64,000 nucleotides of DNA from a virus: IMG/VR virus record IMGVR_UViG_3300045988_183533; one strand, given 5' to 3'. The notes under the pieces are model-generated. The model did not search any database, had not been told where the DNA came from, and saw nothing but the letters and a program-made list of their open reading frames with translations. Both the position numbers and the translations under genes were made by a program. Below, one piece after another: positions 954 to 63,983 of this stretch. Every line of letters starts with the position of its first letter. Position 1 is the first letter of the stretch.

Positions 954-1751
954 TTACAGCAAACTCATCTCTGCACGATATGCATCGGCATCGTAGCCCC
1001 AGATATTACAAGCAAAATCGATTGCTGCGTTACCTTCGCTGGGATAACCGTCGTCAACAAAATCTCCTTTGCAAAGCGCATACCAACCACAATTACTTCC
1101 GATATCCTCATCCGCATATTCTACACGAATATTGGCGTGTGGAAATTTACGGCTCAGTTCGACAATGGCGCATGTAGGCGTATTCCAAGGAGTCTTAAAG
1201 TTAACAGTGATTTCCGTATCATTTGTTCTACGGATACTCACATCGAAGACATCCCACTTTACGCCCCAATTTGCGACACGCCAATAATACCACGAGGCAT
1301 ATCCATAGCTTACGGCGTTTTCCAATGTACGTTCCGCCACAGCGTCGAACTCCTCGATATTATAGGGGATACGTTTCAGGTTGATGAGTTTGCTATCTTT
1401 CACATGTTCCAGTTTGGAGCGAGCTTCCGCAGCTTCCTTGCAAACACCAACCATATCTGATGCAGTAAGTTTTTCCTTCCTGTGCAGGAGAAAAGTTTCT
1501 CTGCAAATAGCCTTTCTTACGTTTTCCGGATACTTCTCCGGGTCAATTCCGTATTTATTTACGGCCGCCCATGCGAGCATCCTGTCACATGGCGATACGA
1601 TTTGCAGTGATTCCGGCATAGGAACAACAGACTGAAGCGAAAAATCTTTTTCGCCATCATCGTCTTTTCCCTTGACACGATTCAGAAAATCCTCCAACTC
1701 TGCCTGAGAATTGAAAGAAACAAACATGATATTCATGATATTGTTTGCCAT
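954..1751 (-). CDS. Conserved hypothetical protein (265 aa) with W-rich motif (YGYASWYYWRVANWGVKWDV); possibly DUF1281/Api92-like
   Basis: Long ORF with ATG start; family assignment is from motif recall only. Confidence 0.55.
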   Translation of the reverse strand: MANNIMNIMFVSFNSQAELEDFLNRVKGKDDDGEKDFSLQSVVPMPESLQIVSPCDRMLAWAAVNKYGIDPEKYPENVRKAICRETFLLHRKEKLTASDMVGVCKEAAEARSKLEHVKDSKLINLKRIPYNIEEFDAVAERTLENAVSYGYASWYYWRVANWGVKWDVFDVSIRRTNDTEITVNFKTPWNTPTCAIVELSRKFPHANIRVEYADEDIGSNCGWYALCKGDFVDDGYPSEGNAAIDFACNIWGYDADAYRAEMSLL

Positions 1752-4535: not shown

Positions 4536-5189
4536 TTATGCGAGCATGGGATATATTTCTTTCTTTACCGCCCTCATAAGAGCGGCAGCATGTGCAGCGT
4601 TTTGTGCATTGCCAACACCTGCGCGAGATATTTTTGGATTCACACGCTCAATGAAATTTTTCTTATACGGGGCAGAAATGCTCCTTGCAGCATCGATAAT
4701 CTGTTTCATGTTTTCAGCGTCGATTTTTTGCTGAACGCATAATTCTTGTAACCGTGTGCAAAAAGCGTCTTTGTTGTCCCGTACAGAAGTAGAATGATTT
4801 TTTGTTTCTTTATGTGGGATGACTGCCTCACAGGCTATCCGTTTAACGCTTAACCATTTACTGCACATGGTCTGAATAAGCCCGTCATATCCCTTGTCTG
4901 CCGACACGATGATATAATTACTTTTCTTTCCTGTTGTGCAAAGACTACCAAGTTTAGCAACAACGTGGAAATCCATGCTGTTTTTCCCTGCATTGGAGAC
5001 GCAGAACTCTACTTGGTTGACTGGGTACTTTGCCAGAAAAACCTGCAATTCTTTAAGTGACATGTATGTGGCTTCCGGACCGATGAAGATAATCAGCTTG
5101 TCCTTTTTGGTTTTAAAATGCACTACATTTAGCCATTTCTTTTGGACATTCTCGGTATCTATCAGCCAAATGGTTCGAGTGCAGCTCAC
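4536..5189 (-). CDS. NYN-domain (LabA/PIN-like) putative nuclease
   Basis: IWLIDTENV ... NYIIVSADKGYDGLI motifs resemble the NYN D-x-E-N and SxD acidic clusters. Start is uncertain: GTG at about 5189 after GGGGGTGA. Confidence 0.5.
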   Translation of the reverse strand: MSCTRTIWLIDTENVQKKWLNVVHFKTKKDKLIIFIGPEATYMSLKELQVFLAKYPVNQVEFCVSNAGKNSMDFHVVAKLGSLCTTGKKSNYIIVSADKGYDGLIQTMCSKWLSVKRIACEAVIPHKETKNHSTSVRDNKDAFCTRLQELCVQQKIDAENMKQIIDAARSISAPYKKNFIERVNPKISRAGVGNAQNAAHAAALMRAVKKEIYPMLA

Positions 5190-5194
5190 ACATT

Positions 5195-5491
5195 TCACCC
5201 CCACACTTCGGTGACTTTTCTGGGGATTCCGTGCTTGTCGATACACTGCCGGTAAATTGTAAACTTACTGTTCGGGTGCGCCTTCATATAGTCAGCGCGT
5301 GCCGCGTCCGTGTTCGCAATCAGCAGATTTTTATCAGCAATAAGAACGCTTTCCCATCCGGAATCGAGAAGCGTACTGGCAACATCCTTGAAAGATACGT
5401 CTGCAGGCGTGTCGCACTTACAAACCCCTCGTGCGATAGGATGCGCAGTGGCAATGATTTTTGCTGCCGTTATCACAGTCTCGTAACTCAT
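5195..5491 (-). CDS. Hypothetical protein (98 aa)
   Basis: ORF-track ORF in an operon with neighbouring genes. Confidence 0.5.
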   Translation of the reverse strand: MSYETVITAAKIIATAHPIARGVCKCDTPADVSFKDVASTLLDSGWESVLIADKNLLIANTDAARADYMKAHPNSKFTIYRQCIDKHGIPRKVTEVWG

Positions 5492-7139: not shown

Positions 7140-8111
7140 TTAAAAAACCTGGTCAAGCTTTGCGCATACGATAAAACGAGTATCGTAATTATCACTGCCG
7201 GAACAGGTAGACAAAATCAAAACCTTATCATTCAATCCAACTTCTGTGGCGTACTGATTGTAAGAATAAGCTTTCATACTTGCAATCTCTGTCAGGAAAT
7301 ACGAATCGTCCGGATTCGCAATGGTATAACTTGGGTCAATAGGATAATCGGCAACAGCAAAGATTTTCCATCGTGTCTGCTGTTCACCCAAGGTAAGATA
7401 AATATACCGATGTTCCTTTGCAAAGTTGACATCGCGAAAGTATTTCAAAACACTGAATTTCTTGTGCATACTATTTCCGTTGCTATGTCCAAAAATAACA
7501 GTTACTCTGTACATATCGTCAACATTGCTGACATTCCATTCGGAAGGAACAAAATAAGCGCCCCAGATACTTTCCCTATCGAACTCATTGTGAGTCAGGT
7601 AATAATCATCGTCTGTGGGATGCTGCAAAATGGGCTCATCTGTAACATCAACGCCGGGAACGGTTAAGTAACCAATGGTGTTTTTGGAATACGCTGGCTT
7701 TGGTGTCGGTTCCGGTTCTGAATCACTCTCACTTGAATTAGAAGACGGGATAAGAATCGAGGGAGTAGAGACGGGTTCTTCTACATCGTCGGAGATGTTT
7801 CCTGTCTCATATGCAGGGATATGATAGTAATCATACGCCTTCCATCCAATATAGCCAATCATGGCAATAAGAACGATGCAAATTACGACCAACAAAACTG
7901 TCCAGATGGAAAATCGCCGTTTCTCTTTGTCCTCTGACGCGTCCATCGCATCCATCGATTCATTGTCATCCTCGTCATGACTTGCCTTTTGATGAGGGAA
8001 GTTTTCACCAGTTCCATCATCCTCATCATTTGGAATGTAATTGTACGCACCAAGTTCCTGCTCGAAATGTTCTTCTTCAGGCAGTGGTGGAATAATAGGT
8101 GTTTTTGCCAT
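7140..8111 (-). CDS. srtB: Sortase-family transpeptidase, class B-like (323 aa; N-terminal acidic tail, one TM, catalytic domain)
   Basis: Catalytic motifs VIFGHS (His), LILSTCS (TLxTC Cys) and downstream TRF (Arg). Start has an AAGGTGA RBS. Confidence 0.75.
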   Translation of the reverse strand: MAKTPIIPPLPEEEHFEQELGAYNYIPNDEDDGTGENFPHQKASHDEDDNESMDAMDASEDKEKRRFSIWTVLLVVICIVLIAMIGYIGWKAYDYYHIPAYETGNISDDVEEPVSTPSILIPSSNSSESDSEPEPTPKPAYSKNTIGYLTVPGVDVTDEPILQHPTDDDYYLTHNEFDRESIWGAYFVPSEWNVSNVDDMYRVTVIFGHSNGNSMHKKFSVLKYFRDVNFAKEHRYIYLTLGEQQTRWKIFAVADYPIDPSYTIANPDDSYFLTEIASMKAYSYNQYATEVGLNDKVLILSTCSGSDNYDTRFIVCAKLDQVF

Positions 8112-8122
8112 AATACATCACC

Positions 8123-9286
8123 TTATTCAGCTGCGGCAGACCGCTCGTACACATCAATGCAGTAGTTGCCCATAATCTTGTTGTACATGCACTCCTGTGC
8201 CAAAGGACCTGCCCCATAGGTATCAACGGCGTTATCGTAGTTACTACCAATATAAGCTTTCACTTCATCGACAGACGGTTTATAGTCCTGTTCCTCTGCC
8301 AGATACTGCGCAACAAGGCTCAGTAAAACATTTTCTTCCGTCTGACTACGAAGACTTTCTGAATACTCCTCCGAGGTCTTATAATTGCTGTATGTCTGAA
8401 CGAATGTCTCCAAGTCCATATTGTAGGCAGTTGCTTCGTTTTCGACATACTTCAAGTTGGTTTCAAGACTCAGGTTGACAAGGTCTGTCGTATCCTTTTT
8501 GAGTTTTACATTGTCAATGAAATACTGTTCAATCTCATTCTGAATCTTATTCATCCGAAGATTCTCTTCAACATATTCACGAAGCAGAGCTACTGTGGTT
8601 ACAGCAGTGCCGTCTTGCAGCTTGTAGCCACTCATGATACCGGCAACATCAGCATCTGTCATGCTATATTGAGAAATTTTATTAAGCGTTACATGGAAAA
8701 CAGCTTCCTTGTTGGCGAGTTCGATAGTCTGCTCGCCTGTAGTTCTATCTGTTGTACTGCTATATCCATCAGGGAATGTTACCGTAACATCAAACGAATC
8801 CCCCGTGTTATGCCCGACGATTTGCTCTTCAAATCCGTCAATAAAGGTATTGGAACCGAGTTCCAAATCGTAGTCTTCTGTTGTTCCACCGGTAAAAGCA
8901 ACACCATCAACCGTACCCTCATAGTCAATGTTCACAACATCGCCTTCCTGTGCGGCGCGGTCTGTTACCTCTGTCGTCAGCTTGTAATTGGACTGAAAAT
9001 AATCCAACTCGCTTTGAATCTCCTCGTCTGTAACGGCGTATACATCTTTGCTGACCGTATACTTCTTATAATCCTTGGGCATCTTTATGTATTTGGACGC
9101 AGTCACATCACGAAAATACCCGTCATCATCAAGACCGAGGTCATACTCAACAGCGGAAGCTGTTTCGGAGGTGGCTGTTTCCGCAGTCTCAGATGCACTT
9201 GTATCGGCCGTATCTTTACTGCACGCAGTCAATGCAATACACGCAGCACTGATGACCGCCAGAATCATTTTTGCGTTTTTCTTCAT
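8123..9286 (-). CDS. Lipoprotein with trigger-factor-like FKBP PPIase domain and TF C-terminal-like domain (extracytoplasmic foldase candidate)
   Basis: Start MKKNAKM at 9286 with AAAGGAGA RBS. Signal peptide plus lipobox LTAC. GDVVNIDYEGTVDGVAFTGG...LELGSNTFIDGFEEQIVGHNTGDSFDVTVTFPDGY closely resembles the trigger factor PPIase region. The track's N-terminal extension is rejected. Confidence 0.65.
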   Translation of the reverse strand: MKKNAKMILAVISAACIALTACSKDTADTSASETAETATSETASAVEYDLGLDDDGYFRDVTASKYIKMPKDYKKYTVSKDVYAVTDEEIQSELDYFQSNYKLTTEVTDRAAQEGDVVNIDYEGTVDGVAFTGGTTEDYDLELGSNTFIDGFEEQIVGHNTGDSFDVTVTFPDGYSSTTDRTTGEQTIELANKEAVFHVTLNKISQYSMTDADVAGIMSGYKLQDGTAVTTVALLREYVEENLRMNKIQNEIEQYFIDNVKLKKDTTDLVNLSLETNLKYVENEATAYNMDLETFVQTYSNYKTSEEYSESLRSQTEENVLLSLVAQYLAEEQDYKPSVDEVKAYIGSNYDNAVDTYGAGPLAQECMYNKIMGNYCIDVYERSAAAE

Positions 9287-9300
9287 GAAAATCTCCTTTA

Positions 9301-9338
9301 TAAAAATACCCCGGCAGACAGGTTGCCTACCGGGGCAG
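9301..9338 (-). terminator. Rho-independent terminator (12-bp stem with two G-U pairs, TATTTTTAT)
   Basis: Lies after the SecE-like stop at 9343. Confidence 0.55.
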
Positions 9339-9342
9339 TATT

Positions 9343-9594
9343 TTAAACGAACAGGAACGGAACGTGAAGCAACAGAGCGTATGCCGCATCCATAATGCCA
9401 ATAATAACGGCGGATACAGCACTCACAACAAGAACTGCTCCGGTTCGATGGAGCGTGTTGTGCATACTCGGCCAAGTCACATTTTTGGGTGCAACCAAAT
9501 TGTGCAGCTTCTTAGGCGTGCTCTTGACGAAAGAAGGAATTGCCTTCACGAAATTCGCAATAGCCGTTCCTACCTTTTTCAGTTTATATTTCAT
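9343..9594 (-). CDS. secE: SecE-like small translocon subunit (83 aa)
   Basis: Start MKYKLKK with AGGAGG RBS; ATGA overlap with the upstream gene. KNVTWPS...TGAVLVVSAVSAVIIGIMDAAY matches the SecE C-terminal TM signature. Confidence 0.6.
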   Translation of the reverse strand: MKYKLKKVGTAIANFVKAIPSFVKSTPKKLHNLVAPKNVTWPSMHNTLHRTGAVLVVSAVSAVIIGIMDAAYALLLHVPFLFV

Positions 9595-9845
9595 GCCGCG
9601 CCTCCTACTCCGGTTACTACGAACATGATGATTGCGATAACAAGCAGAATAGCTGTACATACAGCAACCAGTTTATTTGCGGACGTTTTCGTGCTGTCTT
9701 TAGCACTCGAGCGCATTGTATCACTGATTCCGGTGATAACACTAAGACTGTTCTTGTCAGCCTTATCCATGGAAAGCGTAACCGCACAAACCAGAACAGA
9801 AACCAGCAGAATCAAGATGCACAGAATGATTTCATAAATTGCCAT
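9591..9845 (-). CDS. SecG-like small membrane protein (84 aa, TM-loop-TM)
   Basis: GGGAGGG RBS. Topology and the ...TAILLVIAIIMFVV TM2 resemble SecG/Asp5. Confidence 0.45.
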   Translation of the reverse strand: MAIYEIILCILILLVSVLVCAVTLSMDKADKNSLSVITGISDTMRSSAKDSTKTSANKLVAVCTAILLVIAIIMFVVTGVGGAA

Positions 9846-9860
9846 TGTGTTGCCCTCCCG

Positions 9861-11201
9861 TCAATTCAAGAAACCCTTGTGATGGCGAACCACCAAATGG
9901 CTGTTAAGAGAATCGATAACTTCAAGCGTAACACCTGTGACAATCAACAGACTGGTACCGCCAAAGTGCATGTTCAGACCTGTAACCGCAGTTGCCAAGA
10001 TAGGCACACATGCAATAACCGAAAGAACAAATGCTCCCGAACCGGCGAGAGAATGGCAAGCATTGCGCAGATAATCACTGGTAGCTTTGCCTGCTCGAAT
10101 ACCGGGGATACTGCCGCCGTTCTTACGCAGGTTGTTTGCCATTTCGATGGGGTCAAATGTGATGTCGATGTAGAATAAGTTGAATGCAAAAATCAGGGCT
10201 ACATACGCAACATCATAAATCCAATTCCGCGAATTCCAAGATGCCAGCGCCATATACAGGCTGGGGTGCTTGTTGTAATCGAGGAACATCGTCACGAGAG
10301 ACGGCATACTGCAAATGGTGGACGAGAAAATAATCGGCATAACACCCGACATAATCAGTTTGATGGGGATATAACTGGACTGACCAGTAGATGCTTTGTT
10401 TCCTACATTTTTACCGGCATACTGAACAGGAACGCGGCGCTCTGCATCGCTTGCGAAAACGACATAGAAGGTGGCCGCCAAAACAAAGAGGATGACGCCG
10501 GGAATCATCAGATAATACCACCATCCATTTTCTTTGCCCATTGCAATAGAGTTCTGGAACAACGAGATGACGGCATCCCATCTGGAAATGATACCGGTAA
10601 AGATGATAAGGGAAATACCGTTGCCAATACCTTTTTCGTCAATCAGCCATCCAAGCCAGATGACGATTTGAGAACCAGCAGTCAGAATGGCAATAACAGT
10701 AATGGCTTCCACGACCTGCGAAATGCCGGAAGTGTATTTCATCGCACCGTAGTTCTTCATAATAAAGAAGTACCCGATAGCTGTTACAGCCGCCAAACCA
10801 CAGCCAACATACTGCGTGATTTTATTGATTTGCTTCTGCCCGCCGATGTCCTTGCTGATTTCTTCCAGTTTCGGAATCGCAACAGTCAAAAGCTGGATAA
10901 TGATGCTTGCGTTGATGTATGCAGATACGCCAATCGCAAATACCGCACACTGAGAAAGTGCGCCACCGGAAACCAGATTGTAATAATCCAGTACAGAGGT
11001 GCTTCCGAACATAGTCTGAAGCGCAGCGGTGTTTACGAACGGAATCGTAATACCGCAACCCAGACGATAAATCAGAAGACAAAGGATGGTGAAGAGAATC
11101 TTGTTGCGAACATCATCCACCATCAGCTTCTGAAAGATGGTGCTGTTCGAATAAGACTTTTTGAGTTTCGGCTTTTTCGCCGGATTTTTAATGTTGTCCA
11201 A
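9861..11201 (-). CDS. secY: SecY family preprotein translocase subunit (446 aa), a non-ribosomal-operon copy
   Basis: Full-length 10-TM SecY with GITIPFVNTAALQ, YINASIIIQLLT and plug/hinge regions. TTG start with GGAAGGAG RBS. No rplO/adk/map neighbours. Confidence 0.85.
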   Translation of the reverse strand: MDNIKNPAKKPKLKKSYSNSTIFQKLMVDDVRNKILFTILCLLIYRLGCGITIPFVNTAALQTMFGSTSVLDYYNLVSGGALSQCAVFAIGVSAYINASIIIQLLTVAIPKLEEISKDIGGQKQINKITQYVGCGLAAVTAIGYFFIMKNYGAMKYTSGISQVVEAITVIAILTAGSQIVIWLGWLIDEKGIGNGISLIIFTGIISRWDAVISLFQNSIAMGKENGWWYYLMIPGVILFVLAATFYVVFASDAERRVPVQYAGKNVGNKASTGQSSYIPIKLIMSGVMPIIFSSTICSMPSLVTMFLDYNKHPSLYMALASWNSRNWIYDVAYVALIFAFNLFYIDITFDPIEMANNLRKNGGSIPGIRAGKATSDYLRNACHSLAGSGAFVLSVIACVPILATAVTGLNMHFGGTSLLIVTGVTLEVIDSLNSHLVVRHHKGFLN

Positions 11202-11225
11202 TGCTTACTCCTTCCGCGACTGAGA

Positions 11226-11501
11226 TTATCGAGCAAAGAAAGCAACGATGATTCGCATCAGAAAGGCTACAACGGCCAACTTCGTTGCAAGCCACATGAA
11301 CCAATCGAGTTTGTCGATACCTTCGTCGAATACATTTGTTGCGGCAGCATCTTTTTTGTTACTGTCGCAATCCCCGTCAACATGGTTTTTCTTGATTTTG
11401 TTGCGATTAAGCACAAACAAAGTTCGAAACAAAGCCCATGTTGCAATACAGAATCCGTATACGATTAGAAGCTCGATACAGAAACTGTGCAAAGACGACA
11501 T
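11226..11501 (-). CDS. Small 2-TM membrane protein (91 aa)
   Basis: Translationally coupled to the upstream gene (TAATG overlap). Confidence 0.45.
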   Translation of the reverse strand: MSSLHSFCIELLIVYGFCIATWALFRTLFVLNRNKIKKNHVDGDCDSNKKDAAATNVFDEGIDKLDWFMWLATKLAVVAFLMRIIVAFFAR

Positions 11502-12178
11502 TAAGCGGATGCGCCGTTGGCGTCAGGAGTCGTATTGGAGGAGGTCTCGGCAACGGCCTCTACCGGAGTTTCCGTGACAGTCTCTGCGGGAGAAGTGATA
11601 TCCCCGGTGATTGCGGGGACATTGGCATCTTCTGCGACCGACTCATTGACGGGCGCTTCAATAACCGCATCCTTGACTCCATCAGCAGTCACTTTCTTTG
11701 CTGCGATTTTTGCGAAGTGCTCATTGCGCTTTTCACGGCAAGCCTTGCAGCGGGTGGGGAGCTTGTAGTCATGGACGACATACCAGTACAGCTCGCGATT
11801 GGTAAACTGCAGCTTCTGACCGCAATCTGCGCAGGTGTCTTCCAGACCGATGTTATCCAGCCCGCGCTTCACGAAGTCGCGATGAATTTTGCGGCATTCC
11901 GGGCAGCGGTTCGGCAGAGAATAACCGTGACTCTCGAAGAAATCGCGGTCACGATTGGTGATGTCGAATTCATGACCGCAGTCAACGCACTTGCGGGTCT
12001 CAAACACCTCATTGCTCTTTGCATCAGCTTCCTTGCGAGCTTCATCCTCTGCGCGGCGCTTTGCGAAATCGTCACGCATACGACACTCGCGGCACAGCAC
12101 CTCGCTCTCATTGGCGGTGCTGAACGGCTTGTTGCACTTCTCACAGGTCTTGCGGAATTTCTTTGCTGCATCTTTCAT
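11501..12178 (-). CDS. Triple zinc-ribbon protein (three CxxC-N17-23-CxxCR units, FmdB-like) with acidic C-terminal tail
   Basis: ATG with AAAGGAGA RBS. Units: CEKCN..CRECR, CVDCGHEF..CPECR, CADCGQ..CKACR. Confidence 0.55.
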   Translation of the reverse strand: MKDAAKKFRKTCEKCNKPFSTANESEVLCRECRMRDDFAKRRAEDEARKEADAKSNEVFETRKCVDCGHEFDITNRDRDFFESHGYSLPNRCPECRKIHRDFVKRGLDNIGLEDTCADCGQKLQFTNRELYWYVVHDYKLPTRCKACREKRNEHFAKIAAKKVTADGVKDAVIEAPVNESVAEDANVPAITGDITSPAETVTETPVEAVAETSSNTTPDANGASA

Positions 12179-12222
12179 GGTTTAAGTCTCCTTTATGGTA
12201 AAAAAATTAAAATAATGATTGA

Positions 12223-12738
12223 TTAGGCGTTGGGACCAGAAAAAGAATCGATAATTTCATCAACGTGGACGTTCAAGTCGGACTTGTCATCATCTTTCTT
12301 GGCGGGCTGTTTTACAGGAACAACGATATCAGGCTCATTCTTCTTTTCCTCCGCCGCCTTTTCTTCAACAGGCTTCTCTGCGGATTCATCCTTGGCCTTA
12401 GTGACCTCGGACGCGTTATCGGAATCTGCCTTGGCGGATTCATCCTTATCGGCATCAGGATTCGCTTCGGTTGCCTTATCAGTATCCTTTTTCGCTTCGT
12501 CATGCTGGCGCTCTACACGGATGACATGAACGGCAGTCACAGGCGCGTGATGAATATCATCGATGCAATCGTCACAGCCGCAGCAGTCATCACAGTCATC
12601 GCAGTCGTCGTCATCATGAAGATAGCCGTCATCCTCCAACTCCTTGATGACCTCATGCTTGACATACTTGGTCGTGAGTTTCAGGGCAACGGCTGCAACG
12701 GTGGCGGCACCAATAACGGACAGAATGTTCTTCTTCAT
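12223..12738 (-). CDS. Membrane-anchored or secreted protein with dense Asp/Cys cluster (DDDDCDDCDDCCGCDDCIDD) and K/E/D-rich tail
   Basis: N-terminal signal anchor; AAAGGAGA RBS. First gene of the SecYEG operon, directly downstream of B-type promoter 12780-12814. Confidence 0.55.
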   Translation of the reverse strand: MKKNILSVIGAATVAAVALKLTTKYVKHEVIKELEDDGYLHDDDDCDDCDDCCGCDDCIDDIHHAPVTAVHVIRVERQHDEAKKDTDKATEANPDADKDESAKADSDNASEVTKAKDESAEKPVEEKAAEEKKNEPDIVVPVKQPAKKDDDKSDLNVHVDEIIDSFSGPNA

Positions 12739-12779
12739 AAATTTCTCCTTTGACTAAAAAACAATGTTTCGCTTGGAAT

Positions 12780-12814
12780 ATTTATATTATACCACATAAA
12801 TATAATGTGGTCAA
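12780..12814 (-). promoter_or_regulatory. B-type sigmaA promoter (TTGACC-N17-TGTGGTATAAT) overlapping palindrome CCACATAAATATAATGTGG
   Basis: -35 at 12809-12814; extended -10 at 12786-12791 with TRTG. Confidence 0.7.
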
Positions 12815-12825
12815 TACAAATTGCG

Positions 12826-12860
12826 AATAAAAAAATGCCCCGCCGAAGCAGGGCATGAAA
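12826..12860 (-). terminator. Rho-independent terminator (ATGCCCTGC-TTCG-GCGGGGCAT, T7)
   Basis: Hairpin plus T-run downstream of the 12874 gene. Confidence 0.65.
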
Positions 12861-12873
12861 AATCAGAAATGTT

Positions 12874-13527
12874 TTAACGAATACCGTATCCCATATCTTG
12901 CCGTACAAGCTTTATCTCCGAGGTGTCCTTTAGACTGTCGGGGAATATCTCCTTGATATAATCCTGATAGCGTTTCGTAACATACTTTACGCCGAGCTCC
13001 TCCGGCTTGATACCTTCAGCCGCTTTTCTGATACGCTGATTCGATGCGCGGGAAGCACATTTCTTGCACAAGCAAAGTGCGACATTAGAGATACCTTCAC
13101 TGCCGCAGACAGCGCATTTTGCATGCACTTTATCTCTGTCCCATTCCTTTATTTCTTTTCCGTTTTCCGGGTCTATCACAAGGCGGTTGCGCTTACAACG
13201 ACGCACGTAAAACACACTTTGGCAACAGGCAACACACAAGCCTAAATCTCTGCGGTAGTGAGAAGAACGTCCATCTGTGACTTCACCGCACAAAAGACAC
13301 TTGTTCTGAGAAACAATGCTCTGGTACTTGAGAACCTTATTCACCAATAACCTTTTTATAAGTTCACCGGTCAAATCGGGTTTCGGAGGATACATGTCCC
13401 ACCCATTTACTGGGAACAAGCTGGTGAAATCGCTCCATTCATCATCGGAAAACGAGCAGCCGACAGGCTTGAGCACCTTTGGAAGCTTGTTGGACCATAC
13501 TTTTTCGGCATTGGATTTCTTCGGCAT
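12874..13527 (-). CDS. Cys-rich zinc-finger protein (about 217 aa)
   Basis: Multiple CxxC pairs (CLLCGE, CVACC, CAVCG, CLCKKC). ATG 13527 with GGAG RBS is preferred over 13584. Confidence 0.5.
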   Translation of the reverse strand: MPKKSNAEKVWSNKLPKVLKPVGCSFSDDEWSDFTSLFPVNGWDMYPPKPDLTGELIKRLLVNKVLKYQSIVSQNKCLLCGEVTDGRSSHYRRDLGLCVACCQSVFYVRRCKRNRLVIDPENGKEIKEWDRDKVHAKCAVCGSEGISNVALCLCKKCASRASNQRIRKAAEGIKPEELGVKYVTKRYQDYIKEIFPDSLKDTSEIKLVRQDMGYGIR

Positions 13528-13558
13528 ACAGATTGCTCCTTTGAGGGGGGTGACAAAA

Positions 13559-14983
13559 TCAATATTCTGCCACGATGTTATCATCGGGTTTTTTCTTTAT
13601 CAAAGAGTCCCCGAATCGATTTACATGTTCTTTCGGCGGTTCAATGACCTCGATATCGACATCCTCCACTTTTTCGATTTCGTCAGAGGATTCATCGCCC
13701 TTTTCGTCCTGAACACTATCCGATGGATTGGTGGTTTGTGCGTCCTCCTTTGCGACATCCGAAAGCAAATCAAATGTCAGCTGAGAATTTGAAGACGCTG
13801 GTTTCTTTTCTCTTTTTTTGGTTGTTTGGCGTTTTTTGGAAGTCCTTTTGGGTTTTACATGTTCACTGGAACCAACCTCACTTACTGCAGAACTTATTGT
13901 GCTTGTATCGGCAACAATGTCCACGGAAGCTGTGCCCTTGTCTGTTTCGGTTATAGGTTCTTGAACTTCTTCGTTTTTCGGTAAATCACCTTTATCAGGT
14001 TGCCTTGCTTTTAAGGCAGAAGGCTTCTGCACGTTCGCTTCCGGTTCTTCTTGCACCACGGCCTCTTCCTTGACTGGAATCTTGGCGGCTCCTTTTTGCA
14101 AAAGGCCATCGATTGCTACAACGGCCTCAGATTTCTTTTCTTCGGACTCCGCCTTCTGTACTGCACAGCGAATCGCCTCGGCTTTTTCTTTCTTTTCTTT
14201 TTCTGCTGATGCGGTATTTTCGCTTTCTTTTATCTCAGCAGGCACATTCATGTCGGATTTCGAGTTCCACCACTTTTCAATAGTAGTAATCGTTCTCTCT
14301 ACTAATATTATACCACAAAATTTGTGGTTTGACAACTTGCGGCTCGGTACGAAGCATACGATGCCACACAGAGAAGTAACCAATAAAACGATAGCAAACC
14401 CCGTGTCAAAGATGAAGCAGATGAACGATACCGGAATCAGCAGTTCGCAAATGCCGCGCATAATAAATGCCGCTTTATCTCCTTGGTCTTTTCGGTTTTG
14501 CATAAAACTGTCTCTCCCCTTCTGTGGGTGATAAGACAAACCACTTAATAAGCCATTTGTTGCCCAATCACAAGGTATCTCGTAGGTCTTTTCTCCTAAG
14601 CAGTCTGTGTACTGAATTACGGTAATATCGAAGTAATCACCATTCTTTTGCGATGCCAAGAATGTCTGTAAGAATTCCTTTCCAACAGACCGAGCAGGAA
14701 CGATGATTGTTTCGATGCCGTCAGAATCTTTTGCAGCGATATCTACCACATAGGTATCATCTTCACCGCGCCATACGTTCTGCACAATACCGCGCACCAA
14801 TATGCCACGCTTATGAACACGCCTCCCCATAAAAGTAAAGGAGTTTTCAGAATACCATGTATTTACCATGCAATACGCAGCAATAATAAGCAATGTAAGG
14901 TACTTAACATTTATGGTGATAATGCTTAAAGAAAAAATATACGGAACGAGCATCAGCAAGATGAATGATACAAAGCTATTCAC
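13559..14983 (-). CDS. Membrane protein (474 aa): N-terminal 2-TM plus beta-rich domain, second TM block, long K/E-rich low-complexity C-terminus
   Basis: GTG start with GAAGGCGGTGA RBS. The N-terminal module is paralogous to that of the 14980..15654 protein. Confidence 0.5.
14305..14336 (-). promoter_or_regulatory. B-type promoter sequence embedded inside the 13559..14983 coding sequence (TTGTCA-N17-TGTGGTATAAT, palindrome CCACAAATTTTGTGG)
   Basis: Perfect extended -10 and -35 sit within codons ...[11 protein letters not shown]... An in-frame ATG (MNVPAEI) lies about 55 nt downstream. Confidence 0.4.
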
Positions 14984-19984: not shown

Positions 19985-20944
19985 TTAAATCTCACCGTTC
20001 ATGGTCAGCTTAGCACGAGCCATGATTTCATATCCCTTTGCGTTTGCCGTTACATCCGTCAAGAAGAAGAGGTTCTTGGTATCGATAGCCCGCTCGATGC
20101 TTTCACGCATCATGGCAGAACCGCCGCCCATAAAAATGAAATAGGATGTCTTGAAATCATCCTTGATTTTCTCCGAAATCGTACGAATCAATGCTGTTGC
20201 ATAATTGTCTGCGGTCTCCTTGGCAATCTTTACAGCATTTTCATCAACCAGCATGTTGTTGTTCCCCGCGAGAATTGCTTCGGCCATGTAGTCATCGACC
20301 GACAGAGAACAATGCACACGCAGTTCGCTCTCGACAGTGCTCAGGAGCTCAATGACGCCACGGTCATAGCTTTCGCAGAAAGAAAGGTCCGGAGCGTAAG
20401 TGTTGCCACGACCAGAGAAACGAATCACATCCGTTGTATACCCGCCGATGTCTACAACATAAGAACGGGGATAGCGCTTGATTTCCTTCTGAATTTCGCC
20501 TGCTGCCGTAATAGAAAAGCCCTGAGGATAGACAAAGACATGCTTGACAGTAATCTCGAACGGGATATCTTTGTACATGAAATTGATGAGTTTCCCGTTT
20601 TTGCCGAAATATTCATCGTACTTCGCTTTCAGGGACATATGCTGCGGGGGCAAACCCATCGCGAGGCATACATCGTATTTGTAGAACTTCTGATTGGGAT
20701 ACTTCTTCATGAGGTTCTTTGCTACAGCAATCAGCGTCAGCAAAAAGTAAGTATCATCCTTCGTCTTATCTTGCTGATAAGGCGTGCGGCTGTCATTGAG
20801 GGAATAATACTTCCCCATGTAGCACATCGTCTCTCCCTTGATAGCCGGTTCAGTCGTACCATGACGAACAAGACCAGTAGGAAACGGCTCACAGCCAGGC
20901 GTCTTCATTGCCTTGTTTCCAGTATCTACTCCAATAATCTCCAT
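19985..20944 (-). CDS. parM: ParM/StbA-family actin-like segregation ATPase
   Basis: Start MEIIGVDTGNKAMKT at 20944 with GGAGGA RBS. Actin-fold motifs IGVDTGN, VVDIGGYTTDV, FMGGGSAMM. The track's N-terminal extension is rejected. Confidence 0.7.
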   Translation of the reverse strand: MEIIGVDTGNKAMKTPGCEPFPTGLVRHGTTEPAIKGETMCYMGKYYSLNDSRTPYQQDKTKDDTYFLLTLIAVAKNLMKKYPNQKFYKYDVCLAMGLPPQHMSLKAKYDEYFGKNGKLINFMYKDIPFEITVKHVFVYPQGFSITAAGEIQKEIKRYPRSYVVDIGGYTTDVIRFSGRGNTYAPDLSFCESYDRGVIELLSTVESELRVHCSLSVDDYMAEAILAGNNNMLVDENAVKIAKETADNYATALIRTISEKIKDDFKTSYFIFMGGGSAMMRESIERAIDTKNLFFLTDVTANAKGYEIMARAKLTMNGEI

Positions 20945-21061
20945 AAAAAATCCTCCGAACGAGTCGCAATATAGTTGAAAGTACGAATTTTGGGATACTC
21001 TGCGTGATAAAATATAAGTGTCTACCAGATAACAATGGGACTCACTGACTGATGCATAGCG

Positions 21062-21162
21062 GTTGTTAAAACGGAAAGAACAACTAATATACAACTGCCT
21101 GTTGTTATCATGATACCACATATGCAGTTGTCCGGCAACGAACTTTTGTTCGCGTAGACAAC
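21062..21162. promoter_or_regulatory. Cluster of GTTGT...ACAAC inverted repeats (candidate parC centromere or XRE operator) between parM and the divergent XRE gene
   Basis: GTTGTTaaaacggaaagaACAAC; ACAACtgcctGTTGT; GTTGTCcggcaacgaacttttgttcgcgtaGACAAC. Confidence 0.45.
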
Positions 21163-24811: not shown

Positions 24812-25330
24812 TTAAATAATCGAGAACTTACGCTTTTTGTTTGTGAACTCAACAATCATAGAAGGACGACGACTGCCGATAGTCTCTTTCCGATTCTCAG
24901 AGTCAATGAACAGATAAGGGTTCGTCATCTTGATTCTGGCTGGCAGAAACTTTACCCTTACTCCCTGCTGTCCATAAATGTATCTCTGGAACCAGTCAGA
25001 GTCCGTAGAAACGGGTAAAAGCATGACGACCGTGGTATTCTTTTTCCTTGACTCCTCGTACGCCTTGCGCACCCACAACTTAAAGGACTTATGCCCTGTC
25101 GGGGGATTGCAAAATACTGTTTCACCTTTCCAGTCCTGCAAGAGACCATCGACACGCTCCGTGTAATATTTCTTGCATTTATGATTTTTGTCCGATGCAG
25201 CCGCATCCAGAGTGAAACCGTATTCCTTGTTCAGGTCATCGAAAAGCCCCTGAGGCGTCTCCCATTCCTGTTTGTGAGTATTCTTGACTGCATAAGCCTT
25301 ATCCGTTGTTTTCGTTTCTACGCTGTTCAT
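24812..25330 (-). CDS. Phage-type DNA N6-adenine methyltransferase (Dam family, 172 aa)
   Basis: WETPQGLFDDLNKEYGFTLDAAAS...GLLQDW...VFCNPP...VVMLLPVSTDSDWF are diagnostic of phage Dam-type N6A methyltransferases. Confidence 0.75.
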   Translation of the reverse strand: MNSVETKTTDKAYAVKNTHKQEWETPQGLFDDLNKEYGFTLDAAASDKNHKCKKYYTERVDGLLQDWKGETVFCNPPTGHKSFKLWVRKAYEESRKKNTTVVMLLPVSTDSDWFQRYIYGQQGVRVKFLPARIKMTNPYLFIDSENRKETIGSRRPSMIVEFTNKKRKFSII

Positions 25331-26998: not shown

Positions 26999-28534
26999 TT
27001 ATTTTATATCGCTTGCGTTTTCGTCAGGTTCGATGTGTGCATTGTCATCAGCCTTCTCGATTACAGGCAAACCGTGAATGTTGATATTGCGGTCAGTCTT
27101 AGCATTGATACTATTCGCACGAACGATATCGGCCATATCAATACCGGTAGCTTCCTTGACGGTCTGCATGGTCTGTGCCATCAGCACGGGAACATTCCCG
27201 GACACGCCGGACACGCCAGATGCATCGCCGCCGATGATAGATACCTTATCGATTGCGGACAAGGGCTGAGCCACATTCTTAGCAATATCAGGCAGGACTT
27301 TGATAAGCATTTCAGCGACAGCGGCATCGTTGTACTGCTTGTAAGCCTCCGCCTTTTGCTTCATAGCTTCGGCTTCAGCAATACCCTTCTGACGGATAGC
27401 CTCAGCTTCTGCCTTACCTACAAGGGCAATACCTTCGGCTTCCTGCTGCTTTGCAAATTTCTGAGCCTCAGCAGCGCGTTCGGCTTCGTATTTTTTTGCT
27501 TCTGCTTCTTTTTGGCGTTTATACAATTCGGCATCCGCAGCTTTGCGAACCTCTGCATCCAGTTTTCTCTGCTGAACCTCGGCTTCCTGTGCAGCAAGGT
27601 CGACCATCTTCTTCTGCTTTGCGATTTCCGCATCAGCTTCGGCTTCCTTGATTTCCTTGGCGCGAAGATTTGTCTGAATCTGTCCTGCAGCGTTGGCATC
27701 AGCAGCAGCCTTGTCAGCCTCGGCCTTCAATTTGGCCTTTGCCAGCTGCAATTCATTGTTGCGCTGTGCAATAGCAGTCTGGGCTTCAACTTCCTTTTCA
27801 TTGGCTGCCATTTCAGCGTCAGCCTTTGCGCGAGCAATATCACGAGCGGCTTCGGCACGAGCAATCTCTGCACGTTTCTTGACGGCTTCTTCCTGCTCAA
27901 TACCAATAGCCTCAATGACGCCGTGATTGTGACCCTGCGCATCAACGGCGTCTTTTACATCCTGCACATTGAAGGTTACAACTTCGAGGCCCATCTTTGC
28001 AAGGTCAGGACGGGCATTTTCGATTACTGACAGCGCCATTTGTTTACGATTTGTGAGAATCTGGTCAACCGTCATATCCGAAACGATTTCGCGCAGGTTG
28101 CCTTGCAAGACATCATTTACTTTGTCATTGATGCCTTTTTCGTCCATACCAAGGAAGTTCGAAATAGCCGACTGCTGACGACCCGTAATATATTCTTTGA
28201 CATCCTTTGCACCAGATGCCTGAACCTCAGAGTCGAGAACAGTAGAATTATCGCTGTATACCTGAATCGTTACAACAGAATCAATCCAGAGCGATACGCC
28301 TTCTTTTGTCTTGACACCCGTCTCGGGGGTTTTGACATCAATTTTCAGAAGACGCATATTCAGCTTATCTGCACGCTGCAGCACAGGGATGACAAATGTA
28401 CCCTTTCCACAAACGACCTTGGGCTTTTTCAAGCCAAATCCAGTCACAACGATGGCTGCTGTGGGAGGCGCTTTTTTGTAGCATGTGAATGCGAACAAAA
28501 CAAACAATACGACAATGATGATTCCTAAAAACAT
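26999..28534 (-). CDS. floT: Flotillin / SPFH (band-7) family protein (511 aa)
   Basis: N-terminal TM, SPFH domain, long A/E/K-rich coiled coil (EA repeats) and a C-terminal domain. Architecture and length match FloT/YuaG. AAAGGAG RBS. Confidence 0.7.
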   Translation of the reverse strand: MFLGIIIVVLFVLFAFTCYKKAPPTAAIVVTGFGLKKPKVVCGKGTFVIPVLQRADKLNMRLLKIDVKTPETGVKTKEGVSLWIDSVVTIQVYSDNSTVLDSEVQASGAKDVKEYITGRQQSAISNFLGMDEKGINDKVNDVLQGNLREIVSDMTVDQILTNRKQMALSVIENARPDLAKMGLEVVTFNVQDVKDAVDAQGHNHGVIEAIGIEQEEAVKKRAEIARAEAARDIARAKADAEMAANEKEVEAQTAIAQRNNELQLAKAKLKAEADKAAADANAAGQIQTNLRAKEIKEAEADAEIAKQKKMVDLAAQEAEVQQRKLDAEVRKAADAELYKRQKEAEAKKYEAERAAEAQKFAKQQEAEGIALVGKAEAEAIRQKGIAEAEAMKQKAEAYKQYNDAAVAEMLIKVLPDIAKNVAQPLSAIDKVSIIGGDASGVSGVSGNVPVLMAQTMQTVKEATGIDMADIVRANSINAKTDRNINIHGLPVIEKADDNAHIEPDENASDIK

Positions 28535-30126: not shown

Positions 30127-30678
30127 TCAATCTTCATCGACGTCTTCGTTGACAGTCGTGTTTACTCGTTCCTCTTTCGGAATGTACTTAGGTGTGGGCT
30201 CACAACGACATTTGAGTACATATTCACTATCACCAAACGCAAGTTCCATCAATGCTAACGGGTAGGCAAAAAATAGTTTCTTGGCAAACGCTTCATCCTT
30301 ATCAAATGCTTTGGCAAGCTTCTTGTAAAAAAACCAACAATAAATCGCCAATGCAATGGTACAGACTACATAATCGCAATCCAAAATCGTAAAGCGTGGA
30401 TGTTGAACTCTATCCATAAAGAACGCAATCCAAAAGAACGACGGAATGCATGGGGCAATAGAACCGACACCGTATACTATGGGATATACACCGTAAGAGC
30501 CGTATGCGAAAATTAACGGCGATGCGCCTTTCTTGTACGCTTTATAAGACATTTTCATAACGCATACAAAAACAGTTATGAGCACGGCGTAAATCGGGAG
30601 TATGGCGATGACATGGAAAATACCGAGCTCTCTTGTAAAGGTGTACAAAAGTGTGCTTAAAAATAAAATAACTGGCAT
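30127..30678 (-). CDS. Polytopic membrane protein (183 aa)
   Basis: GAGGAGG RBS; B-type promoter 30699-30730 directly upstream. Confidence 0.5.
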   Translation of the reverse strand: MPVILFLSTLLYTFTRELGIFHVIAILPIYAVLITVFVCVMKMSYKAYKKGASPLIFAYGSYGVYPIVYGVGSIAPCIPSFFWIAFFMDRVQHPRFTILDCDYVVCTIALAIYCWFFYKKLAKAFDKDEAFAKKLFFAYPLALMELAFGDSEYVLKCRCEPTPKYIPKEERVNTTVNEDVDED

Positions 30679-30925: not shown

Positions 30926-31582
30926 TTAGCCTACTGCAGTTTCGTCAGCAGGGGCCTCGGACTCAGCAGCAGAATCAGCCTCGGCAGTATCCTCAGAGGA
31001 AGCCTCCTCAGTGGATTCGGCGGCATCGCCATCAGTCTCGGTGCTTTCAGCCTCGCTGTCGGAAGTCTCACTGTCAGCAGCTTCAGATTCAGCAGTGCTC
31101 TCAGTCTCGGATGCGGCCGCTTCCTCAGCAGGCACGGAGGTAGCCACCAGCAGATTGCCCTCGGCGTCAGCCTGACCACAGTTGTACAGATATGCGAACG
31201 CGGCGCTCAGATTGTCGAACTTGGACAGGTCAGGGACCTCAACGGTAGAACCGTCCTCAGCGGTCTTGGTGCCGTCGAAATGAACGCTGCCATCCTCGTC
31301 ATAGCGAACGGCGACAGTGTAACCATCGCTTGCCAGAGCTTCGGTCATATAAGCGGCATAAGCGTTCATGGTGGTCTTCATCTGGTCCTCACTCAGAGAA
31401 ACACCATCGGGCATCTCAGTCAGCTTGCTGTTATCCAGAACCTCAACTGCGGACTCACTGGTCGCGCCGCTTGCACTGGCAGCATCATCCTTCTTGCCAC
31501 AACCAACAAATGCAGTGCAGGCCATTGCCATAGCGAGACACAGCGCAGCACCCTTCTTTACAGAACTCTTGTTAACCTTCTG
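30926..31582 (-). CDS. Lipoprotein with acidic S/T/E/D-rich C-terminal tail
   Basis: Start MQKVNKSS at 31582 with AAAAGGAGAAG RBS; lipobox FVGC. Confidence 0.6.
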   Translation of the reverse strand, partial: QKVNKSSVKKGAALCLAMAMACTAFVGCGKKDDAASASGATSESAVEVLDNSKLTEMPDGVSLSEDQMKTTMNAYAAYMTEALASDGYTVAVRYDEDGSVHFDGTKTAEDGSTVEVPDLSKFDNLSAAFAYLYNCGQADAEGNLLVATSVPAEEAAASETESTAESEAADSETSDSEAESTETDGDAAESTEEASSEDTAEADSAAESEAPADETAVG

Positions 31583-31651
31583 CATGAGTAACTTCTCCTT
31601 TTTCATGTGTGTTTGTTTGACGTGCATAAACAAGCTTCATGCACTATGCTT

Positions 31652-31683: not shown

Positions 31684-31761
31684 AAAGAATAGCGCCCCAC
31701 AGATTTACCTGTGGAGCGCTATATGTTATCTCTTACGCGGAGTAGAGATTATTTCAGTTGG

Positions 31762-40039: not shown

Positions 40040-40079
40040 GCGGTCAATAATAATTCTGAAAAACAGAAGTTTTTTATGC

Positions 40080-40117
40080 AAAAAAAAGAGCGGCGGCTCT
40101 TTCGAACCACCGCTCTA
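40080..40117 (-). terminator. Rho-independent terminator of the 7323-aa gene (10-bp stem AGAGCGGTGG/CCGCCGCTCT, T8)
   Basis: Lies directly after the stop at 40130. Confidence 0.65.
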
Positions 40118-40129
40118 TTGTTTTACCGC

Positions 40130-62622: not shown

Positions 62623-63876
62623 TTAGTTATCGATATCATAAGAATTTTCCTCACTCCCACAAGATTTATCCTGCGTCCAGTCAGTTCCGGACCACTGTCC
62701 GAAGTCCTTATAACGATTATCGTAATCTTCTGTACTACCCGGTACAATATCCCCACCGCTCGGCTGCTGCTGTGCCTGCTGCTGTGCCTGCTGCTGTGCC
62801 TGCTGGGCTGCCTGCTGCTGAGCCTGCTGGGCAGCGGCCTGTGCGGCTGCCTGAGCAGCAGCCTGCTTCTGCGCAGCGGCCTTCTGGTCAGCTGCCTTTA
62901 CCGGGCAGTTGCTGCTGGTGTGACCGGTCTGGCCACAGTAGCTGCAGGTGACTGCCTTTACCGTAAGCTCGTAAGTGGAGCTTACATCCCCATCAGAATT
63001 GACTGCCATAATGGTCACATTCCCAGTGTCCTTGGCGGTCACATTGCCTTCCGCATCTACAGTAGCAATGGACTCATCGCTGCTCTTCCAAGTAACGGCC
63101 TTGTCCGTAGCATCCTCCGGGAACACGGTTGCTTTGATGGTGTGCGTGTTGCCAACGGTCAGAACGCCTTCATTGGAATCCAGCGTAATGGACTCGATTG
63201 CCTTACCGACGGTGACCTTGGTCTCGGCCTTAGCGTTTTCGGGAACGACCAGCATCTCGCTGTCCACACCGGCGTCCTCTGCCGTAGCAGTGGTGTCTGC
63301 CACGATGGTAGTGGTGATGGTGCATTCGCCAACGCCTACTGCGGTGACATTACCGGACTCATCCACGGTCGCTACCGACTCATCGCTGCTCAAGTAAGCA
63401 AGCTTGACATCGGTGGCGTCCTCGGGAGTCATCTTAGCACCCAGCGCCTTGGTAGCCTCACCGTTGAGTTCCAGACTCAGAGTTTCGGGGGCTTCTACTC
63501 CGGTGGGGAGAATCACGACCTTGATATGGGTCGTGGAAGAAATATTGGCATCTGCAACAGATACTGTGATATCAGCCTCACCGGCACCGACTGCAGTGAC
63601 CAGACCAGTTTCATCAACCGTGGCAACCTCTTCGTCGGAGGAGGACCAGGTGAGATTCAGTTTGGATGCTGCCTCGGCAATCTTTTCCTGCTCGGCCTTG
63701 TCGTCGGTACCATACTCGATATTGAGCTGCTGGGTCTCACCCTTTTCCAGCACAATGTCGGTGGGCAGCCCCACTGAGGTGATATCGACGCCGCAGCCAA
63801 CCAGACTGACGGCCATCGCGACTGCCATAATCAGGCACGCGATACGGGTAAATACCTTAACGGACATAGTCTTCAT
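62623..63876 (-). CDS. Lipoprotein with three Big_2 (bacterial Ig-like group 2) domains, CCHC zinc-knuckle-like motif and Q/A-rich C-terminus
   Basis: Start MKTMSVK at 63876 with AAAAGGAGAA RBS; lipobox LVGC. Repeated ATVDE-GLVTAVG-GEADITV Big_2 signatures; CSYCGQTGHTSSNC. Confidence 0.7.
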   Translation of the reverse strand: MKTMSVKVFTRIACLIMAVAMAVSLVGCGVDITSVGLPTDIVLEKGETQQLNIEYGTDDKAEQEKIAEAASKLNLTWSSSDEEVATVDETGLVTAVGAGEADITVSVADANISSTTHIKVVILPTGVEAPETLSLELNGEATKALGAKMTPEDATDVKLAYLSSDESVATVDESGNVTAVGVGECTITTTIVADTTATAEDAGVDSEMLVVPENAKAETKVTVGKAIESITLDSNEGVLTVGNTHTIKATVFPEDATDKAVTWKSSDESIATVDAEGNVTAKDTGNVTIMAVNSDGDVSSTYELTVKAVTCSYCGQTGHTSSNCPVKAADQKAAAQKQAAAQAAAQAAAQQAQQQAAQQAQQQAQQQAQQQPSGGDIVPGSTEDYDNRYKDFGQWSGTDWTQDKSCGSEENSYDIDN

Positions 63877-63983
63877 AGAGTTTCTCCTTTTTATGTAAAT
63901 TGTATTTTTGGTTTCGAACATCTTTTGCCATGCGCGAACCTCCTTTATGTTTATGGAGGGCCTATCTCTTACCCTCTGTCTAT

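Follow-up and report, generated by a model that had tools for sequence, protein, structure and literature searches.

A SecY-SecG-SecE module with a trigger-factor-like lipoprotein and a class-B-type sortase on a Hodor-type gut megaplasmid

The 64,000-nucleotide stretch analyzed here (IMG/VR record IMGVR_UViG_3300045988_183533, hereafter the window) comes from a 'Hodor' conjugative megaplasmid of Bacillota in the human gut. Between positions 7,140 and 12,814 it carries genes for a SecY-SecG-SecE channel, a trigger-factor-like lipoprotein and a class-B-type sortase. We propose, with a probability of about 0.6, that the plasmid SecYEG exports two giant adhesins encoded in the same window, that a lipid-anchored trigger-factor-like FKBP chaperone handles them, and that the sortase anchors them through an N-x-K-T-G motif. 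The module has already been described in a February 2026 preprint (Yuan et al., bioRxiv 2026; PMC12934698), and the window adds little beyond another example. Several points go beyond the main text of that preprint. The foldase is a lipoprotein, the protein labeled 'hyp' is a triple zf_Tbcl protein, the two giants share the N-x-K-T-G motif, and two extra open reading frames (ORFs) are not conserved. In addition, the zinc-finger gene and the promoter are kept in three lineages, SecY-SecG-SecE cassettes occur on more distant elements, and no SecA can be encoded in the window.

Hodor membership of the window

Two groups of human-gut 'Hodor' megaplasmids, G1 and G2, were reported in the preprint (PMC12934698). 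They are 211-389 kbp in size, and IMG/VR and Hadza data supplied part of them; the 25 genomes that were completed and curated, of about 350 kb, carry Rep_3, ParABM and a type IV secretion system (T4SS). A hyp-SecY-SecG-SecE-trigger factor-sortase B module lies beside giant proteins of 7309-7704 amino acids (aa) and a neighbor of about 2642 aa. All of these giants carry a signal peptide as well as a cell-wall sorting signal, and the module genes are among the few common to both groups. Export of the giants via the plasmid's own Sec pore was proposed there. The metatranscriptome indicated that SecY-SecG-SecE and trigger factor-sortase B are two separate co-transcribed sets. According to the preprint, the trigger factor probably serves as a chaperone; its main text does not contain the word lipoprotein and nowhere mentions SecA.

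The window module has the same gene order, hyp-SecY-SecG-SecE-trigger factor-class B sortase. Its 7323-aa giant falls inside the published size range, and its second giant matches the protein of about 2642 aa. A ParM/Alp7A-like segregation gene was found upstream of the module, as it was in the related loci L004, L005, L010 and L011; Rep_3, ParA/B and VirB4 were not found in the 64-kb window. SecY sequences 99-100% identical to that of the window were on IMG/VR contigs of 88,901, 240,696 and 345,980 bp. A variant with 90-91% identity was on IMG/VR contigs of up to 389,222 bp, and gut metagenome contigs from ENA and Logan (270-382 kb) also carried the 90% variant. Because gene order, giant sizes, ParM and contig sizes all match PMC12934698, the window is part of a Hodor plasmid. 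Habitat and proposed function are the same as well, and we found essentially no difference between the window and the published plasmids.

The central claim has thus already been published. An earlier reading of this DNA, made from the letters alone and called the original prediction below, had held that such a module was not described, and this part has to be withdrawn. All the genes that it listed were present at the coordinates in Table 1 on the minus strand, as is every real gene of the window, and the ParM-like gene bears out the plasmid partition context that it had read from the region.

No close relative of the SecY was found in the GTDB species-representative genomes scanned. Searches of PLSDB and phage GenBank with SecY returned only chromosomal-type SecY, with identities of about 45% or lower.

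The SecY-SecG-SecE channel

The plasmid SecY is full length, as had been predicted, and passed the cut-off of the canonical SecY model (Table 1). Its residues 28-445 aligned to Aquifex SecY (3DL8_G) and, more generally, to SecY in the solved SecYEG and SecA-SecYEG structures (3DL8 and 3DIN). From the alignment with E. coli SecY, the pore ring consists of V82, I86, I187, I191, I278 and I408 (E. coli numbering). The C5-loop arginine, R357 in the same numbering, is kept. The closest chromosomal SecY proteins were those of Gemmiger (48-49% identical) and Subdoligranulum (45.5%), and the mobile-element copies have two small deletions in common relative to them, a hint that these copies may be monophyletic and have long resided on mobile elements.

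The two small proteins following SecY had been assigned to SecG and SecE. SecE scored above the cut-offs of both profiles, so that this assignment stands. The SecG-like protein alone was sub-threshold, with 18.4 bits against 29.2 for PF03840 and 20.3 against 30.85 for TIGR00810. All five orthologues taken from different lineages matched PF03840 (best E=7.7e-7), and the gene always lies between secY and secE. A search of the PDB with a profile of the five orthologues found no SecG. We accept the 84-aa protein with two transmembrane segments as a probable divergent SecG on the basis of these profile matches and its position.

Apart from the two giants and their antisense shadows, the window contains no ORF longer than 556 aa, indicating that it cannot encode SecA or SecA2. 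Since the loops that contact SecA and the ribosome are kept, dependence on the host SecA or signal recognition particle would be the simplest reading.

The trigger-factor-like lipoprotein

The 387-aa foldase begins with a signal peptide bearing a lipobox (LTA-C22), followed by a disordered linker, a peptidyl-prolyl isomerase (PPIase) domain and, at the C-terminus, a helical arm domain. The N-terminal sequence MKKNAKMILAVISAACIALTA-C22 is typical of lipoprotein signals, and lipidation is predicted. Of the 119 listed homologues starting with Met, 108 conformed to a PROSITE-style lipobox rule, and C22 was nearly invariant (alignment A3). Most of the remaining homologues had mis-called starts or an N-terminal transmembrane anchor. 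Among named proteins, the closest relative is P0200 of Faecalibacterium prausnitzii, a chromosomal protein annotated 'trigger factor' (380 aa; 3.12-Mb contig), which is 39% identical and also has a lipoprotein signal.

The FKBP domain and the lipobox confirmed that the protein is a lipoprotein with a trigger-factor-type PPIase. With TIGR00115 (tig) it scored 172 bits, under the cut-off of 180.2, and only profile positions 108-371 of 410 were matched. Trigger factors in the PDB aligned only from about residue 77 (1w26) or 125 (8p7x), indicating that the lipoprotein has no ribosome-binding domain. The 3D structure was modeled using AlphaFold2, with a mean pLDDT of 85.5 and disordered residues 1-44. 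The best eight Foldseek matches of the model in the PDB were all trigger factors (E=1e-11 to 2e-9, 300-345 columns). The TM-scores were low (0.27-0.36), as expected of a flexible multi-domain protein.

The lipobox together with the missing ribosome-binding domain suggested a membrane-tethered, extracytoplasmic trigger-factor-like family that would work where chains leave the channel rather than at the ribosome. The PPIase and helical arm fold is like that of trigger factor (Tig), whereas a lipoprotein signal stands where Tig has its N-terminal ribosome-binding domain. PrsA and PpiD are tethered to the outer face of the membrane, the site where Sec substrates emerge. The plasmid foldase would be tethered there likewise, but its PPIase is of the FKBP type, whereas those of PrsA and PpiD are of the parvulin type. 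A literature search on extracytoplasmic trigger-factor-like lipoproteins and on SecY in huge or jumbo phages gave nothing relevant except the Hodor preprint.

The sortase and its candidate substrates

The plasmid sortase had no Pfam Sortase match at E<0.1 and scored below the cut-off of the class B model (Table 1). Nevertheless, all nine of its PDB sequence matches were class B sortases, from C. perfringens, Listeria, C. difficile and S. aureus (5b23, E=5e-12), and the class-B-like assignment of the original prediction is kept on this ground. The GHS, LSTC and TRF motifs aligned with the catalytic His, Cys and Arg, the Cys position being marked by the C-to-S mutant 5yfk. The first 65 residues (7917-8111, minus strand) form an unusually long, highly acidic cytoplasmic tail before the transmembrane anchor. 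This tail is poorly conserved, as tblastn alignments begin at about residue 68 in most other lineages (L006-L009 and L011).

Both giants have ordinary Sec signal peptides. The larger one ends in ...SNKKTG-IGFAQSIVGLAAMVGIGVAALVVV-NHKRKK and the second in ...VVNYKTG-VGFGADIIVPVIVVVALIGVGAFVIV-KKKK, and the sorting motif common to both is N-x-K-T-G. Their bodies, searched in pieces with Pfam, hold MBG_2, DUF11, DUF7507 and CARDB domains. By eye, the giant N-terminus MQKGKTW... partially resembles a KxYKxGKxW-type signal peptide.

NPKTG is a motif of class B sortase substrates, and N-x-K-T-G resembles it. The plasmid enzyme is like SrtB of S. aureus and B. anthracis (NPQTN/NPKTG) and of C. difficile in its His-Cys-Arg triad, and the NKKTG and NYKTG of its candidate substrates are close to NPKTG. 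It differs from them in the long acidic N-terminal tail, and its candidate substrates are giant adhesins, not haem-uptake proteins.

Several smaller genes flank the giants. Directly upstream of the 7323-aa gene is a gene for a 432-aa lipoprotein-like protein (signal ...LVGCG) with three Ig-like domains (Big_2), a CCHC match resembling a zinc knuckle and a tail rich in Gln and Ala. Downstream of the second giant are genes for a 235-aa acidic, lipoprotein-like protein (...FVGCG) and a 183-aa protein with several transmembrane segments, neither having a family match. The preprint described three downstream neighbor genes co-transcribed with the giant (PMC12934698), and these are probably two of them. 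Long antisense ORFs opposite the giants are almost certainly shadow ORFs of repetitive, biased coding sequence, not genes.

Conservation of the module

The module genes were searched by tblastn over 15 related loci. The order zinc finger-SecY-SecG-SecE-trigger factor-SrtB is kept in three lineages, the window type (L003-L005), L001/L006-L009 and L010/L011, whose flanking genes are only 25-37% identical (Table 2). Between the window and L001, nonsynonymous divergence (pN) was far under synonymous divergence (pS) in all six core genes, with pS of 0.61-0.86 near saturation. SecY had a pN of 0.058 and a pS of 0.61, and the other core genes had pN values of 0.14-0.22. The preprint clusters families at 70% identity. 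Applying this rule to the sequences, the window type and the L001 type would correspond to G1 and G2, and the L011 type, whose SecY is 59% identical, is probably a third lineage.

Table 2. Amino acid identity (%) of module proteins between the window and two groups of related loci
Protein	L001/L002, L006-L009	L010/L011
SecY	90-91	59
SecG	72-77	35
SecE	70-72	41
Trigger-factor-like lipoprotein	72-76	59-60
Sortase B	62-75	68 (L011 only)
Zinc-finger protein	57-68	51
Flanking 236-aa gene	37	25

Cassettes were also found on more distant elements. L012 carries SecY (71% identical)-SecG-SecE at 10001-11834 of a 120-kb contig and lacks genes for the zinc-finger protein, the foldase and a sortase. It may be a different kind of element, with RRXRR, dCMP deaminase and NT5C-like genes as neighbors. 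L014 (1-12296) carries SecY (55% identical)-SecG-SecE, and has no zinc-finger or foldase gene; genes for a SpaA-domain giant (>2419 aa), a sortase (PF04203) and a bactofilin adjoin the cassette. The L014 SecY is about equally far (54-56%) from Hodor SecY and Gemmiger SecY and has both of the small deletions of the mobile-element copies.

Promoter, terminators and accessory open reading frames

The module is preceded by a terminator-like hairpin closing the upstream gene (12874-13584) and then by a promoter. An equivalent site, TTGACT-17-TG-TATAAT, lies 5' of the module's first gene, at 9069-9097 in L001 and at 9195-9223 in L011, and the terminator-then-promoter layout ahead of that gene is kept in all three lineages. 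The original prediction had read one 'B-type' promoter driving a single operon. The promoter is there, with 11 of 12 matches, but 'B-type' is no recognized class and the site is simply sigma-70-like. The single operon was overstated, as two of the ORFs are lineage-specific and the preprint shows two separate co-transcribed sets. The predicted terminator after secE is a strong hairpin 6 nt past the stop codon; the corresponding position in L001 and L011 showed none, and it was seen only in the window. In L011, a terminator-like hairpin (9948-9971; 9-bp stem, 6 G-C pairs, T run) lies between the zinc-finger gene and secY and could be an attenuator. It is absent in the window and L001.

The 225-aa zinc-finger protein is the 'hyp' of the preprint, the conserved first gene of the module, and its gene lies directly 5' of secY in the three lineages, with 51-67% identity. 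The family is narrow: a homologue search gave only 20 proteins and no functional clue. The acidic Asp/Cys-cluster ORF was found by tblastn only in L003-L005 (92-94% identity). The 91-aa ORF between the zinc-finger gene and secY is doubtful as a gene; it occurs only in the near-identical L003-L005, and in L001 the gap between the two genes is only 85 nt.

Table 1. Features of the window, grouped by module, candidate substrates and other genes
Feature	Position	Strand	Evidence
Terminator-like hairpin closing upstream gene	12835-12856	-	9-bp stem, 6 G-C pairs, T7 run
Sigma-70-like promoter, extended -10	12786-12814	-	TTGACC-17-TG-TATAAT, 11/12 matches
171-aa membrane-anchored acidic protein, Asp/Cys cluster	12223-12738	-	no significant family match
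225-aa cytoplasmic protein, three CxxC...CxxC treble-clef zinc-finger units, acidic tail	11501-12178	-	PF13451 zf_Tbcl E=2.6e-10
91-aa ORF, two hydrophobic segments (doubtful gene)	11226-11501	-	no family match
SecY, canonical-type channel subunit, plasmid-borne paralogue	9861-11201	-	PF00344 E=1.1e-86; TIGR00967 329.6 bits (cut-off 253.6)
Probable divergent SecG, two transmembrane segments, 84 aa	9591-9845	-	PF03840 E=0.0024, profile positions 1-68/70
SecE, single transmembrane segment, 82 aa	9343-9591	-	PF00584 33.4 bits (cut-off 22.7); TIGR00964 30.8 bits (cut-off 27.55)
Strong intrinsic-terminator-like hairpin	9307-9337	-	14-bp stem, 8 G-C pairs, T run
Predicted extracytoplasmic trigger-factor-like FKBP lipoprotein, 387 aa	8123-9286	-	FKBP_C E=1.3e-16
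Class-B-type sortase, 323 aa, 65-aa acidic cytoplasmic tail, N-terminal transmembrane anchor	7140-8111	-	TIGR03064 77.9 bits (cut-off 153.75)
7323-aa predicted substrate	40130-62101	-	signal peptide, MBG_2, 22 DUF11, 19 DUF7507, NKKTG, transmembrane segment, KRKK
~2648-2669-aa predicted substrate	31762-39771	-	signal peptide, 6 MBG_2, NYKTG, transmembrane segment, KKKK
ParM/Alp7A-like actin segregation protein	19985-21121	-	PF21522 E=2.7e-12, ALP_N, Alp7A_like_C
432-aa lipoprotein-like protein	62623-63921	-	Big_2, CCHC
235-aa lipoprotein-like acidic protein	30926-31633	-	no family match
183-aa protein, several transmembrane segments	30127-30678	-	no family match
511-aa flotillin/SPFH protein	26999-28534	-	Band_7 and Flot
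Phage-type DNA N6-adenine methyltransferase	24812-25330	-	PF05869 Dam E=5e-31
PIN7-domain protein	4536-5246	-	E=2e-20
Ferredoxin-like domain of Api92-like proteins	954-1751	-	DUF1281_C E=3e-15
Antisense ORFs, up to 2985 aa (almost certainly shadows)	31711-38352, 40076-43039, 43193-46564, 46742-55699, 56435-59773	+	

Other genes in the window include a flotillin gene, whose product could, speculatively, organize membrane microdomains near the secretion module, and genes for a PIN7-domain protein and an Api92-like protein.

Discussion

In the mechanism that we propose, the conserved promoter would drive the cytoplasmic triple zinc-finger protein and the plasmid's canonical-type channel. In this channel the pore ring is still hydrophobic, and the C4/C5 loops on the cytosolic side, with which SecA and the ribosome make contact in solved complexes, are kept. 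No motor is encoded in the window; the most likely one would be host SecA and/or co-translational targeting. The two giants, which are MBG/DUF11 repeat proteins of 7323 and about 2650 aa, would be threaded through the extra channel, which may spare the housekeeping translocon or free export from the host. At the outer face, the chaperone, predicted from its architecture and lipobox to be lipid-anchored, would receive the emerging chain. From its triad and the motif shared by the giants, the sortase would be expected to cleave N-x-K-T-G and link them to the cell wall. The displayed giants are probably adhesins aiding plasmid spread or gut colonization.

Several points weigh against this proposal. 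A separate housekeeping secY in the host is an assumption. The 64 kb read here are part of an element of about 350 kb, and SecA, YidC or signal peptidase could lie elsewhere on the plasmid. SecG and the sortase are under curated cut-offs. The signal peptides of the giants are ordinary, and no sequence feature forces the use of the plasmid channel. Cassettes occur without the foldase in L012 and L014, and in L012 also without the sortase and the zinc-finger gene, indicating that the link between the channel and this set of substrates is not a strict one. The L010 foldase is truncated to 212 aa, and topoisomerase and RecG genes follow it in place of sortase B. L010 and L011 have an identical SecY (P0090) and diverge inside the foldase gene (L010 11879-13200 versus L011 11879-13983). 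Either L010 arose by a natural rearrangement in which the foldase arm and the sortase were lost, or it is an assembly chimera.

Some of the same observations would fit a plasmid SecYEG that serves as a general supplement for the plasmid envelope proteome (T4SS, lipoproteins, flotillin and transmembrane proteins). It would increase the total capacity for export and membrane insertion, or make that capacity independent of the host, and so help a 350-kb plasmid to establish itself in different Bacillota. L012 and L014 do without the foldase, sortase B and the zinc-finger gene, the giants' signal peptides have nothing special, many more membrane proteins and lipoproteins are predicted in the window, and SecY is canonical in every feature tested. 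On the other hand, three lineages show tight linkage of the foldase and sortase B with the cassette. The giant genes lie within 20-30 kb of it in the window lineage, a giant MBG_2 gene lies about 6 kb upstream of it in L001, and the module genes are among the few common to both Hodor groups (PMC12934698). We consider a general supplement, the main rival of our reading, rather unlikely.

Export, folding and anchoring of the giants, the reading preferred here, could also be extended. SecYEG, a tethered chaperone docked at its exit and a zinc-finger cytosolic adaptor steering giant precursors or their mRNAs to the plasmid channel instead of the host's might form a self-contained orthogonal line that lets proteins of >7000 aa be displayed in phylogenetically distant hosts. 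Mobile SecYEG would extend beyond the two published Hodor groups among gut Bacillota, the loci compared here containing three or more additional lineages. We put this forward only tentatively.

A huge phage that remodels host secretion during infection is suggested by the filing of related contigs as viral genomes in IMG/VR, and the window does contain a phage-type Dam methylase. However, no capsid, portal, terminase or tail match was found among the Pfam-scanned ORFs of the window. Plasmid replication, partition and conjugation genes were found in PMC12934698, and the phage cases described there were traced to chimeric assembly or embedded prophages. This explanation is therefore very improbable.

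A streptococcal-type accessory Sec (SecA2/SecY2-Asp) system was rejected on its defining features (SecY2 scores, SecA2 and Asp1-3), and its probability is close to nil. The resemblance lies in a second SecY near very large sortase-anchored adhesins and in small membrane proteins after SecY that recall Asp4 and Asp5. However, canonical SecY was the model that passed, and the SecY2 models failed their cut-offs (TIGR02920, 145.5 bits versus 249.6; NF009082, 144.9 versus 353). The small proteins matched SecE, above the cut-off, and SecG; no ORF in the window is long enough for SecA2, and the scanned ORFs had no match to SecA, Asp1-3 or glycosyltransferase. The original prediction had likewise called the translocon accessory and distinct from SecA2/SecY2-Asp, and we agree. 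Compared with the SecA2-SecY2-Asp1-5 systems of streptococci and staphylococci, the plasmid module has a canonical SecY with SecE and SecG homologues in place of Asp4/Asp5, and adds an extracytoplasmic foldase and its own sortase.

It is just as implausible that the module is the single housekeeping SecYEG of an unrecognized small-genome bacterium, or a chromosome piece: SecY scores above the equivalog cut-off and purifying selection on it is strong, but, as had been noted earlier, no ribosomal-protein, adk, map or nusG gene adjoins the module, no rplO, adk, map, nusG, rplK, tRNA or rRNA was found within the 64-kb window (Rfam and tRNA scans gave no matches), most window ORFs lack a family match, a ParM-type segregation gene is present, and the complete ~350-kb genomes with Rep_3, ParABM and T4SS are known (PMC12934698). 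The data support an accessory translocon on an extrachromosomal element, not a housekeeping locus.

Among known plasmids, a functional analogy is offered by the enterococcal conjugative plasmids. They encode wall-anchored aggregation substances, PrgB/Asc10, and rely on the host Sec machinery and sortase A. Both kinds of conjugative plasmid encode wall-anchored adhesins that may promote cell-to-cell contact, whereas the Hodor-type plasmid brings its own channel, foldase and sortase, and its adhesins are several times larger.

A mobile element with its own complete SecYEG, exit-side chaperone and sortase is unusual, and so is a 7300-aa cargo. The module bears on two questions: how a membrane can be crossed by very large proteins while the essential translocon stays unblocked, and how megaplasmids stay functional across hosts. 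What remains of value in the window is the predicted placement of the foldase outside the cytoplasm, the puzzling conservation of the zinc-finger gene and the wider clade of mobile-element SecYEG. If it is lipid-anchored outside the cell, the foldase would be an FKBP-type counterpart of PrsA, with chromosomal relatives in Faecalibacterium and its allies.

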